This document shows positions 1-15,291 of a DNA stretch of 16,133 bases, one piece after another. The notes beneath the pieces are model-generated. The model saw only the letters and a program-made list of their open reading frames with translations, searched no databases and was not told where the DNA came from. The DNA lies in the NCBI GenBank assembly GCA_002779075.1, contig PEXK01000002.1, forward strand, positions 1 to 16,133. The letters are read 5' to 3'. Each line of letters begins with the position of its first letter. Position 1 is the stretch's first letter. The stretch comes from Candidatus Diapherotrites archaeon CG08_land_8_20_14_0_20_30_16 (GTDB lineage: Archaea; Iainarchaeota; Iainarchaeia; Iainarchaeales; 0-14-0-20-30-16). The position numbers and the translations under genes are program-made.

Positions 1-1500
1 ATAACTATTGTGTACAATAATATTGTTTGCAACAAAGTTATGATTCTCTAGAACTTCTATATCATAAACTTTCTGTTTTTTATTAATTGTTTTTAGCTCT
101 ATAATTTCATCCCATAATATATCACTTTTTGCTAAATTCATCAAATATTCTGATTTCTCTTGTTTGGCAATTTTTTCTAATTTAGTTCTGCTGATTGAAT
201 ATTTTTTTAATTCTTTTGAACTTTTAGAAACTTTGTATCCTAAGGCTTTTCCAATTTCAACCCAAGACGATTTAAATTTGTAGTTATTCCATAATTCTTT
301 TGGTATTGTATCTATGTTTGGGTTAAATTTTGCTTTTTTTTCTTTTTTTAAGGCAAATTTTGCTTTTTTTTCTTTTTCTCCAAAAAATCCAATTTCTTCA
401 ATGAATGTCTTGACAAACTCTCCAGAAATAATTAATTCATATGCTTTGAATATTTTGTTATTATATTTTATTGTTCTATTTCTTAATATTGAAATTACAC
501 CAAATTTTAAAAGCAAGCTTTGAACCTGAGTTATTAATTTTTTCGAAGCCGAACTATAATCAATTTGATAAAACCTGCCATGTTTGTATATTGAACCATC
601 ACAACTAAATAATCTATTTAAAAATATTACCAGTTCTGTTTTTGGTAATTTGTATATTATTTTAGGAATATCTTTTTCTTTTGCAAACTTTCCGAAAGCA
701 GTTACTTTTTTTAACCACTCTTTTAAACTGTTTTGCGGTGTAAATTTTATTCCCTTAGCAAATAAGTTCCCTTTTCTGTTGTTTTTTAAGATTTTTCTTG
801 TAAAATTAGTATTTACTGCTCTTAAAGTTATTCCAATTGGTTTTAATGTGAGATTTTTATCAAATTTTGTTATACAATCACTATACTCTTTAATTATTTT
901 TTTATCTGCATTAGTAAACCAAACCATGTTGTTCATAGTGTGTCCTTCAGCAATCAAATATGCCAAAAGTTTTACTTTGTGTTGTTCTAACTGTTCTTTG
1001 CCAAAGTAAGGCAATATTCTAGGTGTTGCAATTCTTGACCCTTTTTTTAACTTTTGTGCTTCAACCCAACCATTAATAGTATACAGTGGGTGTTTTGGGG
1101 TTAATTCAATTTCTCTTCCGGTTCTTGATTTTAATATTATTGTTTTATTAATAGTTCTCTCATAAAACTGGGTTTTATTGTTTTGTTCTAACTTGAATTT
1201 GGAGTTCATAGCAATAATTTTTTTATTAATTTTTGCCAAATCTTTAATTTTTGCTACAGAACCATCATCTAATTGTATTTCTGTTTCCCCGGTTAGACAT
1301 TTGCCAGAACCCCTTTTCCCTGAAATTAATACAACATGTGGTTTAGCTAAATCAACTAGAATCTTTCTGCCTAAAACTGGATTCTCGCCAGAGCTCATTA
1401 CTACTTTTGCAAGAAGACCAGTTCCTTTCTTGCCATACTTTTTAATATCCTCTTCTGATCTGCCAACAACTACTTCTTCAGAGCTTAGTTCAAATGCCAT
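1..1500 (-). CDS. HerA/DUF87-type (COG0433-like) P-loop NTPase, 5' part only, interrupted by an intein. The gene continues beyond the window start.
   Basis: My own translation of the minus strand from ATG 1500..1498 gives 500 sense codons down to base 1 with no stop. That explains its absence from the ORF track. N-extein (1500..1300): MAFELSSEEVVVGRSEEDIKKYGKKGTGLLAKVVMSSGENPVLGRKILVDLAKPHVVLISGKRGSGK. This ends inside a Walker A loop, and the frame resumes with SY at 6..1 after the intein. A TATA-like ttatatata lies about 27-35 nt upstream of the ATG. Confidence 0.85.
   Translation of the reverse strand, partial: MAFELSSEEVVVGRSEEDIKKYGKKGTGLLAKVVMSSGENPVLGRKILVDLAKPHVVLISGKRGSGKCLTGETEIQLDDGSVAKIKDLAKINKKIIAMNSKFKLEQNNKTQFYERTINKTIILKSRTGREIELTPKHPLYTINGWVEAQKLKKGSRIATPRILPYFGKEQLEQHKVKLLAYLIAEGHTMNNMVWFTNADKKIIKEYSDCITKFDKNLTLKPIGITLRAVNTNFTRKILKNNRKGNLFAKGIKFTPQNSLKEWLKKVTAFGKFAKEKDIPKIIYKLPKTELVIFLNRLFSCDGSIYKHGRFYQIDYSSASKKLITQVQSLLLKFGVISILRNRTIKYNNKIFKAYELIISGEFVKTFIEEIGFFGEKEKKAKFALKKEKKAKFNPNIDTIPKELWNNYKFKSSWVEIGKALGYKVSKSSKELKKYSISRTKLEKIAKQEKSEYLMNLAKSDILWDEIIELKTINKKQKVYDIEVLENHNFVANNIIVHNSY
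7..1299 (-). mobile_element. Intein (431 aa) with LAGLIDADG homing-endonuclease domain, inserted between Lys and Ser of the Walker A motif GKRGSGK|SY
   Basis: Block A is CLTGETEIQLDDGS, starting at Cys codon 1299..1297. Block B is TPKHPLY. The LAGLIDADG motifs are KLLAYLIAEGH and FLNRLFSCDGSIY. Blocks F/G are KVYDIEVLENHNFVANNIIVHN, ending at Asn codon 9..7, followed by the +1 Ser at 6..4. Confidence 0.85.
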
Positions 1501-1547
1501 AATTATCTATATAGTGATGTTAAAAAAGTATATATAATTATCTTATT

Positions 1548-1772
1548 CTAAGGTGATACTAGTATTATTGTATCTCCTCTGATAATAACTTTGCCAAACT
1601 TTTGTGCAACGCTATCATCTTCGTTTAGTTTTTCAGCTTCTTCTAATACCAAGTTCATATGAACATCGAAAGCTTTTAATTTTCCTCTAATTCTTAAGTT
1701 ACCTTTCATTAGTATCAATACATTTTTGTTAATACTGTTGTTTAAAAAATCAAATGGTTTTGTTTCTGTCAT
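1548..1772 (-). CDS. Archaeal Sm-like (LSm/SmAP) RNA-binding protein
   Basis: 74 aa. The Sm1/Sm2 pattern is present: VLILMKGNLRIRGKLKAFDVHMNLVLEEAE ... KFGKVIIRGDTIILVSP. A GGTGA lies 9 nt upstream of the ATG. Confidence 0.9.
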   Translation of the reverse strand: MTETKPFDFLNNSINKNVLILMKGNLRIRGKLKAFDVHMNLVLEEAEKLNEDDSVAQKFGKVIIRGDTIILVSP

Positions 1773-1802
1773 TCTTTTTCACCTCAAAAATATCTTTATT
1801 AA

Positions 1803-1826
1803 ATGACAAACAATATAATTTGTCAT
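1803..1826. promoter_or_regulatory. Perfect 8-bp inverted repeat ATGACAAA-N8-TTTGTCAT whose spacer is TATA-like (caatataa / ttatattg), upstream of the Sm gene
   Basis: Read directly from the sequence. It lies between the MinD stop (1879) and the Sm start (1772), with the TATA-like spacer about 40-46 nt upstream of the Sm ATG. Confidence 0.4.
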
Positions 1827-1878
1827 GCAAGCGCTAGGTTTGATTTGTCTTTTATTAATCATTTGTTTTTCCTAAATC

Positions 1879-2655
1879 TCATTTGCCAAATATACTTTTT
1901 AGCCAAGCAAAGAATCCTTTTTTCTCTGTTTGAATAACAACTTCTTTTCCCAACAATCTCTTAGCAATGTTTTTTATTGCTAAACTTGCAGGAATATTAG
2001 GATTCTTTATTATTATAGGTACAATTTGTTTATAGTAGAAATTTTCTCTAACAACTTCATCAAATGGAATCATCCCATAAGATGGTAATTCCATCATTTT
2101 AACAATATCTTCTTCTTTAATTTCTCCTCTGTAATGTCCCACCATGTTTACAATAATGCCTACAGGTTTTGCATTGATTTTCTGTGCCATTATTTTTGTT
2201 TTCAAGGCATCTGCAATTGATAATGAATATGGATTTATTACTATAAAAACTTCTGTGGCTGCTGCCATTGCTGCTAATGTATCTTCCCCAATCCCTGCTG
2301 CGCAATCCAAAATTATAAAGTTATAGTTATAGGTTAGTTTTTTTACAATCTGTGGAATTTTGCTTAAATCTAAAGCTTGAAAATTCTGCAGTGACAAAGA
2401 AGCAGGAATAACATCCACCCCTCCCGGACCTTTGTAAATAACATCTTCAATATTTGCTTCTCCTCTTAAAACATCATTTATTGTTATGGGCGAGGATTCC
2501 ATACCCAAAATCAAACTCAGGTTTGCCATACTAACATCAGCATCAATCAAAAGTACCTTTTCATTCATTTGCTTTAATGCAATTCCTAGATTTGCAACAA
2601 GGGTGGTTTTCCCTACTCCGCCCTTACCAGAGGCAAATGTTATTATTCTAACCAT
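1879..2655 (-). CDS. minD: MinD/ParA-family ATPase (archaeal MinD type) with a C-terminal amphipathic helix
   Basis: Deviant Walker A SGKGGVGKTT, Walker B-like FIILDCAAG, and the C-terminal tail KKGFFAWLKSIFGK, which resembles a MinD membrane-targeting helix. Confidence 0.92.
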   Translation of the reverse strand: MVRIITFASGKGGVGKTTLVANLGIALKQMNEKVLLIDADVSMANLSLILGMESSPITINDVLRGEANIEDVIYKGPGGVDVIPASLSLQNFQALDLSKIPQIVKKLTYNYNFIILDCAAGIGEDTLAAMAAATEVFIVINPYSLSIADALKTKIMAQKINAKPVGIIVNMVGHYRGEIKEEDIVKMMELPSYGMIPFDEVVRENFYYKQIVPIIIKNPNIPASLAIKNIAKRLLGKEVVIQTEKKGFFAWLKSIFGK

Positions 2656-2737
2656 AAAAAATCACTTTTATTTTTTGTGGTACTGTTGACAATTTTGCAT
2701 ACTTGATAAAAATTGGCAACTGACCATGAATATCACT

Positions 2738-3220
2738 TTAACAAACATCTTTTAATTTTTCAGTTATTATTTCTGGATTTCTGGCATATAATTGTTTTGA
2801 ATTTAGAACATCATGTGTTATTGCATTTATTTCCATATCACTTAACTTAATTTCTTTTTTTGTTACAAAAACAAAACTGTCCCTTTCAAACAAACCAATC
2901 CAAGGATTATCCTCCAATAACATAACTTTTTTTTGCAGGTTTAATTTTATACTATTAAAAAAATCATAGTATTTTAACAATTCTTTTTTGTTTATGTCCT
3001 CTGAAGACAACAAAATATCTTTATTTAAAATAAGTGCAAACTCTAATAAATTGTGTTTCTTTAACAAAGTTTCAATAAATGCTGAAATATTTTGTTTACT
3101 AATTTCTTTTACTATTTGTTTTTGACCAGAATATAAATCCCTTATGAATAGTTCTTGGTCTGATGTTTCTGTATCGTCTATGCCCAAAACGTGTCTTGCA
3201 ATTTTTCTAAAAAAAGCCAT
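2738..3220 (-). CDS. Hypothetical protein, tentatively Roadblock/LC7 (MglB)-like
   Basis: 160-aa ORF, 8 nt downstream of the preceding gene. The segment ETLLKKHNLLEFALILNKDILLSSED followed by a hydrophobic beta-like run resembles the Roadblock pattern. The functional call is weak. Confidence 0.65.
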   Translation of the reverse strand: MAFFRKIARHVLGIDDTETSDQELFIRDLYSGQKQIVKEISKQNISAFIETLLKKHNLLEFALILNKDILLSSEDINKKELLKYYDFFNSIKLNLQKKVMLLEDNPWIGLFERDSFVFVTKKEIKLSDMEINAITHDVLNSKQLYARNPEIITEKLKDVC

Positions 3221-3228
3221 GATCTCAC

Positions 3229-3711
3229 TTATATATTAATATTGCCGAGCCCAATCTTTTTAAACAGATCGTATTTTGATTCATTTTCTCCTTCTGTTGT
3301 GCCTATAATTTCTTCTCTATATTTTGGGGTCACAAATTGACTCAAATATTTGTATTCTTTTATAGGTGTTGTTTTTATTTTTTCGTTAAATGTTAATATT
3401 AATTCTGTTTGTTCCTTTGTAAGTGCATAAACGTCTAAAGTTCCAAATTGAACAACCAGAGTGCTCATGAATAATTTCATTGCATTGTCACCAAAATTTT
3501 CTTTATTTTTGTCTAAAAATGTGTGATATGCTCCTTTTATTATTCCATCTTGAAATACCAAAAAGGAATCTTCATATCCAAATTTGTCTTTTATAGTTAT
3601 GCAGATATAGCCGTTAAATTTTTTTGCAGACAAATCAGAAATCATGTTTTGACAATTCAAATTTTTTAATGCAACATTTTTTATTATTGGTTTGCCTGTA
3701 GGAATATTCAT
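3229..3711 (-). CDS. Hypothetical protein, DUF4388/PATAN-like (archaeal DUF2226-like) N-terminal domain
   Basis: 160 aa. FNGYICITIKDKFGYEDSFLVFQDGIIKGAYH...FGDNAMKLF...GTLDVYAL follows the G-x-L...iyf-x-dG-x-iv-x-A...G-x-x-A pattern of that family. Its start overlaps the upstream stop as ATGA (3708..3711). Confidence 0.7.
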   Translation of the reverse strand: MNIPTGKPIIKNVALKNLNCQNMISDLSAKKFNGYICITIKDKFGYEDSFLVFQDGIIKGAYHTFLDKNKENFGDNAMKLFMSTLVVQFGTLDVYALTKEQTELILTFNEKIKTTPIKEYKYLSQFVTPKYREEIIGTTEGENESKYDLFKKIGLGNINI

Positions 3712-4166
3712 ATTCTCCCTTTTTGCTGTCTATTTAGAATTACAATATAATCTGCACAGTTTTTCAAAGCTGCTGCACTTGATTCATCAACTAAGATTGC
3801 AACAGTTTCTTTGCCAAGGGCTTTTGCTTTTTGTATTGCAGGAATAAAGTCAGAGTCTCTTGTAACAAAACAAATTACATCTATATTTTTGTTGTACGCA
3901 ATTGTTGCTGCTTCAACAGCCATCATAACATCAACATCTCCAACAGAAATTGCAACTTCAAACCCTTGATTAACAACTGCCTCTGAAAGTTTTGTGGGTG
4001 CAAATTGGTTCAAAAAGACCTTTCCTATTTTTATAGTTCCAAATTGAGTTGCAATATCTTTTATCTGTTTTAGATCTACGTTTAATTCTTTTCTAAGCAT
4101 GTTCGGGCCATCGACAAACACAGCTATATTCTTCTTTTTACTGACTAAATTTTTAAACCAAGACAT
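3708..4166 (-). CDS. NYN-domain (LabA/DUF88-like, PIN-like) predicted ribonuclease
   Basis: IAVFVDGPNM ... DVDVMMAVEA ... VICFVTRDSDFIPAIQKAKALGKETVAI matches the NYN/LabA acidic-residue pattern. I prefer ATG 4166 (MSWFKN...), which has AGGTG 6 nt upstream, over the track's GTG at 4175. Confidence 0.85.
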   Translation of the reverse strand: MSWFKNLVSKKKNIAVFVDGPNMLRKELNVDLKQIKDIATQFGTIKIGKVFLNQFAPTKLSEAVVNQGFEVAISVGDVDVMMAVEAATIAYNKNIDVICFVTRDSDFIPAIQKAKALGKETVAILVDESSAAALKNCADYIVILNRQQKGRI

Positions 4167-4317
4167 AAAAAACACCTACTCAAAACCTGCACCAAATTAG
4201 AGCTTCAGCTAGCTTTAGCTCATTAGATATGCTTATTAGAATATAAAAGTAATATATTTAAATACCTTATTATTATATTTATAACTAGGTGAAGTTCTTT
4301 TTTAGGAGGAGTTTAAA

Positions 4318-10455: not shown

Positions 10456-10911
10456 TTATTTCTTTCCAAACACATTTTCTTTTAAAGAATTAATTTGTTT
10501 TTTGCTTACTAATGTATCTTCTGTTATATCTTCAACATCCTGATCAGTGTAACTGATTTTGAAACTGCCTAATTGATTTTGTTCTACTTTTATGTTATCT
10601 TTGAATTTTTGTTGTAATGTTTGTTGCAATTTTTTTTGCTTTGCAATCTTCTCTAATTCTATGTTTAAATAGTTCTTTAGGTTCTCTAACTCTAAAATGT
10701 GTGCTTTTACAAGTTCATAAACATTCTCTTGATTCTTTGCATTTAAAGAAATTGGAATTGCATCATGTGTTGCTATTTTTGTACTGTCTTTAATGTCTTG
10801 CATCTTTTGATCTAGGGTGGTTTGTTTTATTTTGAATTTTCCAATCTCTCCGTCAATTTTTGACAAAAGAAATTTATATCTATTTTCTTTTTCATTAATA
10901 TCTTCAGGCAT
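10456..10911 (-). CDS. Coiled-coil protein, function unknown (third gene of a three-gene operon)
   Basis: 151 aa, heptad-rich, starts MPED. It begins 9 nt after the upstream gene's stop. Confidence 0.65.
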   Translation of the reverse strand: MPEDINEKENRYKFLLSKIDGEIGKFKIKQTTLDQKMQDIKDSTKIATHDAIPISLNAKNQENVYELVKAHILELENLKNYLNIELEKIAKQKKLQQTLQQKFKDNIKVEQNQLGSFKISYTDQDVEDITEDTLVSKKQINSLKENVFGKK

Positions 10912-14459: not shown

Positions 14460-14903
14460 CTAACTTTTTCTTGTAAATTCCATGTGATTTGTTTTGATTA
14501 TTTTTTTGGCCAATCCAATCATATCATAAACAATAGGATTTTTATCTAGAACTTCTTTGATATCTTCTTTATTTATATTGCCATATTCATGTGCTAACAA
14601 ATTTCTGCGAGATATTAAAAACGCAAAGTCAGTATATGTCTCTTCAGTGATTAATTTATTATCTTTTAATATTGTAAATATTTCAATATATTTATTACTT
14701 GGACCTAATTTTGTTATAAATTTTATATCATCTGCAATGTCTATAGTTGCATTAATTATAGAAAATAATAACATTGCAGAACCATGTAAGCAACTAGCTT
14801 TATTTAATTCTGAATCTTCATCTAAAATCTTGTTAAGTTCTGAAAAAAATCCTTCAATTTCCTCAATTTTTTTAGTTATTCTATCTTTGGCAAGTTCATC
14901 CAT
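14460..14903 (-). CDS. hepT: HEPN-domain (DUF86/HepT-type) toxin
   Basis: The R-x4-6-H motif is present in SRRNLLAHEYG. The protein is about 147 aa and helical. Its start overlaps the upstream MNT gene by 8 nt. Confidence 0.85.
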   Translation of the reverse strand: MDELAKDRITKKIEEIEGFFSELNKILDEDSELNKASCLHGSAMLLFSIINATIDIADDIKFITKLGPSNKYIEIFTILKDNKLITEETYTDFAFLISRRNLLAHEYGNINKEDIKEVLDKNPIVYDMIGLAKKIIKTNHMEFTRKS

Positions 14904-15291
14904 TAATTATCCACTCGTATCTTTTATTTAATATCAATCTTTTATAAAAATCATATTCTCCAATTGTTTTAAACTTTAGTTTGTGTATTTTATAATCATA
15001 TTTTTTTGGCAAATATAATAGTTTTCCTTCAAATAATATGTGATATTGTATATTGGGTGGTAATTTCCAAAAATTGGATGCTTGTACTAAATCTTGATTG
15101 TATTTATAAACATCGTATTTTTCATCTATAGGAATTATACAAATATCAACATCAGATTCCTCTTTTGTTCTTCCTGTTATGTAAGATCCAAATAAATACG
15201 CTGCAACAATATTTTTATCTTTCTTGATTTCTTTTAGGAAATCTTTGAGTTCGGCTTTTGCTTTTGCTTCTGAGAATACAATTTTATACAT
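14896..15291 (-). CDS. mntA: Minimal nucleotidyltransferase (MNT/MntA-type) antitoxin
   Basis: LFGSYITGRTKEESDVDICII matches the GS-x9-10-D-x-D polymerase-beta-type NTase motif. Confidence 0.85.
   Translation of the reverse strand: MYKIVFSEAKAKAELKDFLKEIKKDKNIVAAYLFGSYITGRTKEESDVDICIIPIDEKYDVYKYNQDLVQASNFWKLPPNIQYHILFEGKLLYLPKKYDYKIHKLKFKTIGEYDFYKRLILNKRYEWIING

Follow-up and report, generated by a model that had tools for sequence, protein, structure and literature searches.

An intein in the Walker A motif of a HerA/DUF87-superfamily ATPase gene of a Candidatus Diapherotrites archaeon, apparently a recent product of homing

The window studied here is the entire 16,133-bp contig PEXK01000002.1 of a Candidatus Diapherotrites metagenome-assembled genome (MAG), CG08_land_8_20_14_0_20_30_16. 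One end of this contig carries the 5' part of an ATPase gene which is cut by the contig end. Very probably this is a chromosomal HerA/DUF87 ATPase gene of a DPANN archaeon, whose Walker A motif is split by a class-1 homing intein, with the window as an apparently recent product of homing. The evidence consists of the anatomy of the intein and its host, of intein-free alleles on otherwise identical chromosomes, and of the behavior of the intein across the host family.

Results

The contig ends in an intein-interrupted ATPase gene

The original prediction was an ORF (open reading frame) of 500 codons on the minus strand that is missing from the ORF list. Re-translation from the ATG at position 1500 down to base 1 (window 1-1500) gave 500 codons without any stop, and the product, which begins MAFELSS, consists of a 67-aa N-extein ending in GKRGSGK, a 431-aa LAGLIDADG intein and Ser-Tyr at the contig end. 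The tail of the N-extein, residues 53-67, reads ...KPHVVLISGKRGSGK. The deposited counterpart of the 500-aa product is 'hypothetical protein COT14_00035, partial' (P0001), with 100% identity. The listing for window positions 1-1537 holds three plus-strand ORFs only, as had been stated for 1-1500; the intein-bearing ORF is absent because the list omits ORFs which run off the end of the source. No frameshift or stop that would make this a pseudogene was seen, and the gene simply leaves the contig at its end.

For comparison, the best 120 homologues were used as the orthologue set, mostly proteins of ~860 aa from Diapherotrites/Iainarchaeia, Woesearchaeota, Micrarchaeota, Aenigmarchaeota and Nanoarchaeota. 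The features of the gene are as follows.

1-1500, minus strand: first 500 codons of the HerA-like ATPase gene with its intein, cut off at the contig end (translation and database match)
1300-1500, minus strand: N-extein, residues 1-67, a small beta-rich N-terminal region plus the first seven Walker A residues (translation, orthologue comparison), with the Walker A portion G61-K67 at 1300-1320
7-1299, minus strand: class-1 intein of 431 aa (Cys68 to His497-Asn498) with a nested LAGLIDADG homing endonuclease (profiles, alignment)
1276-1299, minus strand: block A, CLTGETEI, residues 68-75; Cys1 (Cys68, 1299 to 1297) is the N-terminal nucleophile (Cys in 120/120 orthologues)
1081-1101, minus strand: block B, TPKHPLY, residues 134-140; T134 and H137 invariant (alignment of 120 orthologues)
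940-969, minus strand: first LAGLIDADG motif, LLAYLIAEGH, residues 178-187; catalytic Glu185 (Glu in 117/120)
592-624, minus strand: second LAGLIDADG motif, FLNRLFSCDGS, residues 293-303; catalytic Asp301 (Asp in 118/120)
7-69, minus strand: blocks F/G, VYDIEVLENHNFVANNIIVHN, residues 478-498; D480, H497 and N498 invariant (profiles, alignment)
1-6, minus strand: first two C-extein codons, Ser499-Tyr500; the Ser belongs to Walker A and also serves as the +1 nucleophile in splicing (translation, orthologue alignment)
1501-1547, minus strand: short upstream intergenic region separating LSM from the start codon of the ATPase gene (sequence)

ATG 1500 is regarded as the true start because an in-frame stop lies three codons upstream and the orthologues begin at the equivalent Met. 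Over that stretch the window is identical to an intein-free metagenomic contig, L084, described below. An A/T-rich, TATA-like element, ATAATTATATATAC, which lies in the upstream intergenic region at about 1527-1540, is a candidate for the promoter of the ATPase gene.

The insert is a class-1 intein with an intact endonuclease

All motifs that had been quoted for the insert, from CLTGETEI to the final Ser-Tyr, were found where they had been placed, and its description as a textbook LAGLIDADG intein was borne out by four profiles, each of which scored above its curated cut-off: Pfam Intein_splicing (PF14890; E=1e-24, 87.5 bits, cut-off 35.8), Pfam LAGLIDADG_3 (PF14528; E=2.7e-21, 76 bits, cut-off 22.5, residues 292-371), TIGR01445 intein_Nterm (40.4 bits, cut-off 24.5, residues 68-141) and TIGR01443 intein_Cterm (29.1 bits, cut-off 15.6, residues 477-499). 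Because the intein and LAGLIDADG_3 scores exceed the cut-offs, a chance assignment can be set aside. The closest solved structures are the DnaB mini-inteins, followed by the VMA, CDC21 and RadA inteins. The GC content of the intein is 26.4%, compared with 37-38% for the exteins.

Cys1, T134, H137, D480, H497, N498 and the +1 Ser are invariant in the inteins of all 120 orthologues, and the copy in the window has every one of them. It therefore shows the complete class-1 set: Cys1, T-x-x-H, the block F Asp, a His-Asn end, Ser at +1 and an in-frame insertion which restores Walker A on removal. The two catalytic acids of the endonuclease, said to be intact in the original prediction, are both present.

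The host is a small ATPase of the HerA/DUF87 superfamily

The window holds only two codons of the C-extein. Downstream of Ser-Tyr the sequence continues as a P-loop ATPase in all 120 homologues, in a second protein of the same MAG (COT14_00725) and on two intein-free contigs. The junction GK/C...HN/S (slashes mark the splice sites), followed by Tyr, Phe or His, was identified in 120/120 homologues, with inteins of 406-468 aa and then a C-extein of ~365 aa; the full-length orthologues of ~860 aa that share this site number more than 100. After the intein they read SYT...IDTVGIFW..., then the Walker B region IDEAHMF...GRQPGLSLLLATQRP...SQCDLFISxR, and the C-extein is characterized by a Walker B of the form hhhIDEAHxF and by GRQPGLSLxLATQRP. 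In silico splicing of the 120 homologues gave exteins of ~431 aa. The claim that splicing rebuilds the Walker A motif GKRGSGK-SY agrees with the intein-free alleles, which read GKRGxGKSY without a gap.

In the MAG itself the C-extein is found on another contig as COT14_00725 (P0131, 336 aa), which starts at an internal GTG that corresponds to V97 of the real protein. It was deposited as a separate and apparently complete 'hypothetical protein', and ~27 codons between the two halves are missing from the MAG. The halves of one gene are thus annotated as two unrelated proteins. An exact-match query for COT14_00725, aimed at DNA beyond base 1, had no result.

The spliced nearest orthologue, P0002 (433 aa), matched Pfam DUF87 with 26.2 bits (cut-off 23.2), and so did 24/24 intein-free members at E<=1e-3 (best 3.6e-12); the extein fragment of the window alone, at 69 aa too short, gave no match. 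The best matches of the host in the PDB, both by sequence and by profile, are HerA. An AlphaFold (AF2) model of the intein-free P0121, with a pLDDT (predicted local distance difference test) of 85.4, was compared with the PDB using Foldseek, and the top 50 matches were all HerA (hexamers), with a best E of 7e-19 and TM (template modeling) scores of 0.58-0.63. Invariant in the family alignment are G61 K62 R63 G64 G66 K67 S68, D307 E308 A309 H310, G332 R333, T343 Q344 R345 and S355 Q356, and the Walker A, Walker B and GRxxG...TQxP...SQ regions align to the HerA structures 8xau/9x1l. It is concluded that the spliced host is a ~432-aa P-loop ATPase of the HerA/DUF87 superfamily; to judge from the modeled fold, it is presumably a hexameric nucleic-acid translocase.

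The predicted HerA/DUF87 type thus held at the level of the superfamily, by DUF87, HerA structures and fold, and failed for canonical HerA. The latter was rejected since the family scored 49-53 bits against NCBIfam HerA equivalog cut-offs of 850-970, has ~432 aa with Walker A at residue ~61, and lacks a NurA partner nearby. No NurA was found at loci L002/L003 or among the recurrent neighbors of 128 loci, nor was a Sir2 or DUF4297 partner. About 55 residues precede Walker A, with three to four short strands in the model; canonical HerA has a HAS-barrel of ~100 aa.

The same chromosome exists without the intein

A metagenome search with COT14_00725 identified L084 (Ga0066635_10049764), a complete intein-free gene with GKRGAGKSY, whose protein is 100% identical to COT14_00725. 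Across the insertion point its empty site reads ...AGTGGCAAACGCGGAGCCGGAAAG followed directly by TCATATTCGATTGCT.... A second contig, L001 (Ga0210051_1073940; 2 kb, reached via the MinD neighbor), is also intein-free and shows no difference from L084 in the 978 nt where they overlap. The upstream MinD-LSM genes of L001 are those of the window, with 1 mismatch in 1347 nt.

Within the ATPase gene, the window is 100% identical to L001/L084 up to nt 164 of the coding sequence (CDS; window 1337), and positions 1337-1608 are all identical. All differences in the N-extein fall into one short stretch next to the intein:

1300-1336, minus strand: 37-nt flank differing at 17 positions from the empty allele of the same chromosome; putative co-conversion tract or recombination breakpoint (allele comparison)

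The differences change 11 of 13 codons, mostly synonymously, including swaps between Ser TCA and AGT and between Arg AGG and CGC, and alter only three amino acids (V57I, I59L and S64A). The probability that all 17 mismatches fall in 37 of 309 nt by chance is about 2e-16. Because the differences are clustered in 37 nt of an otherwise identical allele, the divergent tract would represent a recombination breakpoint and not point mutation. Divergence restricted to the flank is what co-conversion of the flanking extein during homing produces. On the other side of the intein, the +1 Ser codon of the window is AGT, as in the nearest intein-bearing relatives; L001/L084 have TCA, and intein-free alleles have TCN. 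The flank therefore seems to travel with the intein.

An independent pair of alleles showed the same pattern. L019, a contiguous 14.6-kb intein-bearing contig, and the intein-free L104 differ at 13 positions, all of which lie within -22 to +114 relative to the insertion site; no difference occurs in the 978 nt of the gene that follow, and over 4375 nt the two contigs are 99.86% identical (P about 9e-13). Since this pair repeats the pattern on a contiguous contig, flank-restricted divergence is a property of the intein family.

In another MAG, JBDRLP01 ('MEGAHIT-group-1.784'), three contigs carry the ATPase gene (L036, L041 and L045), one intein-free and two intein-bearing. L045 (with intein) and L036 (without) have an identical 112-nt upstream sequence and exteins that are only ~89% identical, which could be a mixture of strains in the bin or another recombinant.

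The intein is patchily distributed and its endonuclease is under purifying selection

Of 76 classified species-representative genomes, a set that does not include the source MAG, 22 carry the intein. On a host tree of 126 tips its distribution requires at least 27 changes (gains or losses), compared with a mean of 34 for shuffled labels. The dN/dS ratio (nonsynonymous over synonymous divergence) of the homing endonuclease and linker region was 0.07-0.21 in 9 pairs, similar to that of the splicing domain, with 0.126 for the window against L085, its nearest relative. Taken together, the clustering of differences in the flank, the purifying selection on the nuclease and the patchy presence indicate a working homing element. 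In the sequence data the allele behaves like a functional homing element that would cycle by gain and loss, mostly among close relatives. That the intact motifs signal an active homing element, as originally suggested, thus receives indirect support from population data (L001/L084, L019/L104 and dN/dS).

Long-range horizontal transfer as the dominant mode was rejected, as in only 2 of 780 pairs did the identity of the inteins exceed that of the hosts by more than 5 points.

Four contigs with this DPANN-type ATPase gene (L020, L044, L048 and L076) are placed in MAGs labeled Chloroflexi, Falkowbacteria or Thaumarchaeota; these are probably mis-binned.

Observations against recent homing and the alternatives they favor

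Several observations weigh against a recent gain by homing. The first group concerns the assembly. The intein-bearing version of this chromosome was assembled once (P0001, with 1 member and 1 contig), the occupied contig stops 6 nt beyond the intein, and an exact 42-mer scan of metagenome contigs with the contig terminus identified no read-through of the C-terminal junction. This is what would be seen if the contig were an assembly chimera, in which a shared word near CDS nt 140-164 had led the assembler to fuse an intein-free organism's MinD-LSM-ATPase 5' end with an orthologue that carries the intein, from a related DPANN population of the same sample. The divergence of the tract, 46%, is as expected between different lineages, and a 23-nt word identical to the L085 lineage adjoins the breakpoint. 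However, no known relative shares an exact word longer than these 23 nt, and the final k-mers of metagenome assemblers are typically larger than that. The window contains no Ns, and the database search gave no protein in which this intein follows a different N-terminus. In the source MAG, the assembly breaks off to either side of the site, with COT14_00725 represented from V97 only, which is not expected if an intact intein-free allele dominated. Moreover, L019/L104 come from an unrelated sample and show the same flank-restricted divergence on a contiguous contig with both flanks present. A chimera is therefore judged distinctly unlikely.

The second group concerns the age of the intein. The synonymous divergence (dS) to L085 is 1.21 for the intein and 1.44 for the host, and thus similar. 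Across the family the identities of intein and extein are correlated (Spearman 0.80), with means of 56% and 64%, respectively; because of this strong correlation, much of the history of the intein appears to be co-divergence with its host and not long-range transfer. When the 37-nt tract was compared with ten relatives, the two alleles had 23-27 and 23-26 identities of 37, so that neither is clearly closer. Because the dS of the intein resembles that of the host, the intein could be a long-term resident, and L001/L084 could have arisen when the empty allele of another lineage replaced the intein and a short flank by homologous recombination. The family-wide correlation is in line with such a replacement, and the tract comparison does not speak for either direction. 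On the other side, the window shares its AGT codon at +1 with the nearest intein-bearing alleles and not with the TCN of empty ones, and the intein-free form occurs in two other metagenomes, which suggests that it is the common background. Gain driven by an endonuclease is also mechanistically far more efficient than precise replacement. Replacement by an empty allele carries some weight but is unlikely, and the gain of the intein is favored as the direction, on the grounds of mechanism and the shared AGT codon.

Third, the intein of the window has two unusual residues, both non-catalytic: Lys136 in block B (1081-1101), where 118/120 orthologues have Glu, and Leu484 (window 49-51, minus strand), where 107/120 have Pro. 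These substitutions, and the incomplete state of the gene in the window, would also be seen in a decaying or pseudogenised fragment that no longer gives a functional ATPase. This is extremely improbable, given 500 open codons in a 30% GC genome, a full set of intact catalytic residues, a truncation that coincides with the contig end and an intact C-extein in the same MAG.

The co-divergence of intein and host also bears on the question why the intein is kept. It might be retained as a post-translational switch of the P-loop (conditional protein splicing) and not for its mobility: it is conserved across several DPANN phyla with invariant splicing residues, its divergence follows that of the host, and the clustering of inteins in P-loops has been argued to reflect selective retention (PMC4760082). 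But purifying selection acts on the nuclease as it does on the splicing domain, and the catalytic acids have been kept; a pure splicing switch needs neither. About 70% of species lack the intein, its presence on the host tree is nearly random, and empty and occupied alleles coexist on identical backgrounds. The +1 residue is a Ser and not a redox-type Cys. A domesticated, regulatory intein is thus very unlikely, and a homing element with recent gain is the preferred explanation.

A second insertion site and related inteins

A different intein was found in the Walker A loop of the same host, three residues upstream of the site occupied in the window. In L008 (4579-7008; CAYZSS010000013.1) and L089 (Ga0268276_1004711) the junctions read ...CGKRG/CLVEDT...GIISHN/SGKSY. 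This intein of 374 aa has LAGLIDADG motifs of its own (LLGFLLSDGS and FIKALFSCDGY) and is 27% identical to the intein of the window; the profiles Intein_splicing and LAGLIDADG_3 matched with 4.9e-19 and 6.3e-18, respectively. At least two insertion sites therefore exist in the P-loop of this host.

When 1.84 billion representatives were searched, 579 proteins with relatives of the window intein were obtained at E<=1e-30. The closest inteins outside the orthologues, with 43-49% identity, are in P0241 (1197 aa), P0246 (1492 aa) and P0247 (1223 aa), which are larger DUF87 proteins. Like the window intein, they occupy the K/S position of Walker A (GARGxGK/C...HN/S followed by Phe or Tyr), and the DUF87 profile resumes at position 37 after the intein. 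Unlike the 432-aa protein, their hosts are much longer, with long acidic or coiled N- and C-terminal extensions, and are not orthologues. At 35-39% identity, inteins were found at the Walker A K/S position in DnaB (site b) and in two further P-loop proteins (P0251 and P0288); the DnaB site-b intein P0273 (GRTAAGK/C...HN/S) is 37% identical to that of the window. The DnaB relative P0257 carries its intein at a different DnaB site. These sequence relationships suggest an intein clade that may be specialized for the Walker A K/S position.

Neighborhood of the ATPase gene and other features of the window

The neighbors of the ATPase gene are ordinary archaeal housekeeping genes, among them LSM, MinD/ParA, DUF2226, NYN, an M50 protease, AMMECR1, NMD3 and TrmB. 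No tRNA and no Rfam family was found in the window. Three regions are listed here.

1548-4175, minus strand: co-directional run directly upstream of the ATPase gene, encoding an NYN-domain protein, DUF2226, a 160-aa unknown protein, MinD/ParA and LSM (Sm-like)
10456-10911, minus strand: 151-aa coiled-coil ORF without a Pfam match, 9 kb from the ATPase gene
14460-15291, minus strand: HepT-like RNase (14460-14903) and MNT/Pol-beta nucleotidyltransferase (14896-15291), overlapping by 8 nt

Other lineages do not share the arrangement from NYN to LSM in front of the ATPase gene. Elsewhere the ATPase gene is usually preceded by a co-directional gene for a coiled-coil/winged-helix protein of ~162 aa, which was the most recurrent neighbor in 128 non-redundant loci (56 loci), followed by a convergent gene for an unknown protein of ~227 aa (43) and Alba (28). 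The 151-aa coiled-coil ORF resembles, by eye, a ~156-aa family which is located just upstream of the ATPase gene, on the opposite strand, in 22 other loci. The HepT-like/MNT pair is a typical HepT-MNT toxin-antitoxin module.

Discussion

From standard class-1 chemistry, it can be proposed that the precursor would be translated as a single chain of ~863 aa. An N-S acyl shift would begin at Cys1, the Walker A Ser in its role as +1 residue would attack, and Asn498 would cyclise, upon which the exteins would be ligated to an intact GKRGSGKSY P-loop. Before splicing, the ATPase is expected not to bind nucleotide. As for the DNA, intein-free alleles are most likely cleaved at the insertion site by the endonuclease, and when the break is repaired off an intein-bearing copy, both the intein and a little of the adjoining extein would be copied in (co-conversion). 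The window would be an apparent recent product of this process, as its chromosome is that of two other metagenomes except for the intein, the 37 nt and the Ser codon.

In a wider sense, the window may well be a snapshot of an ongoing intein invasion, and this is held with moderate confidence: the chromosome would be found with and without the intein, with a short co-converted flank, and the donor lineage would be synonymously saturated relative to the recipient. If this is true, it would give direct evidence from natural populations that DPANN archaea acquire DNA of diverged relatives, which homologous recombination then integrates, and the Walker A motif of a conserved HerA-like ATPase would be a hotspot for at least two unrelated inteins three residues apart. 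The dimorphism of empty and occupied alleles with flank-restricted divergence, if confirmed with reads, would then be evidence for gene flow and recombination between populations.

The understanding of inteins is unchanged by these findings. Homing inteins at the Walker A K/S position are well known, and the allele, a widespread addition to them, will not surprise specialists. Beyond the first observation, what is new is an unrelated second intein, which interrupts the Walker A loop three residues further upstream, and, probably, the evidence of current mobility drawn from allele sequences. For annotation, hundreds of DPANN genes named 'LAGLIDADG family homing endonuclease', 'replicative DNA helicase' or 'hypothetical protein' represent the intein-interrupted ~432-aa HerA-like ATPase, and the case illustrates why contigs break at such intein sites. 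For intein biology, a widespread and apparently uncatalogued P-loop allele and a second site are added from a lineage that was barely sampled by surveys. The 2023 archaeal intein survey included no more than 2 DPANN genomes, in which there was a single intein (PMC10643990), and the main text of the 2015 survey has 0 mentions of HerA or FtsK (PMC4760082). A literature search for inteins with HerA, DUF87, FtsK-HerA, DPANN and MJ0043, which did not extend to InBase, gave no description of this allele.

In comparison with known systems, the host resembles HerA, as it occurs in archaeal HerA-NurA, in Deinococcus and in the anti-phage HerA-Sir2 and HerA-DUF4297 systems, in its fold, its Walker A and B motifs, its GRxxG...TQxP...SQ block and its match to Pfam DUF87. 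It differs in size, with only ~432 aa compared to HerA chains of 458-592 aa, and in lacking a NurA, Sir2 or DUF4297 partner. The intein is like the P-loop inteins of other ATPases: it is inserted between the Walker A Lys and the Ser/Thr that serves as +1 nucleophile, and it combines class-1 chemistry with a nested LAGLIDADG endonuclease. RadA and VMA are hosts of inteins at this position. Further sites between Lys and Ser or Thr include DnaB site b, MCM site a and RFC-S site a, and the clustering of inteins in ATPase P-loops that the 2015 survey describes (PMC4760082) matches the preference which had been mentioned in the original prediction. Unlike the DnaB, MCM and RFC-S hosts, the protein studied here is a DPANN ATPase of the HerA/DUF87 superfamily and no replisome or recombination protein. 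The closest parallel in population behavior are the haloarchaeal polB and MCM inteins, for which homing was shown experimentally and flanking extein codons were co-converted (Naor et al., 2011, as cited in PMC10643990). Like these, the window intein is an archaeal chromosomal intein with a LAGLIDADG nuclease and a presence/absence polymorphism in close relatives; unlike these, its host is an uncultivated DPANN archaeon, and its homing is inferred from metagenomic alleles.

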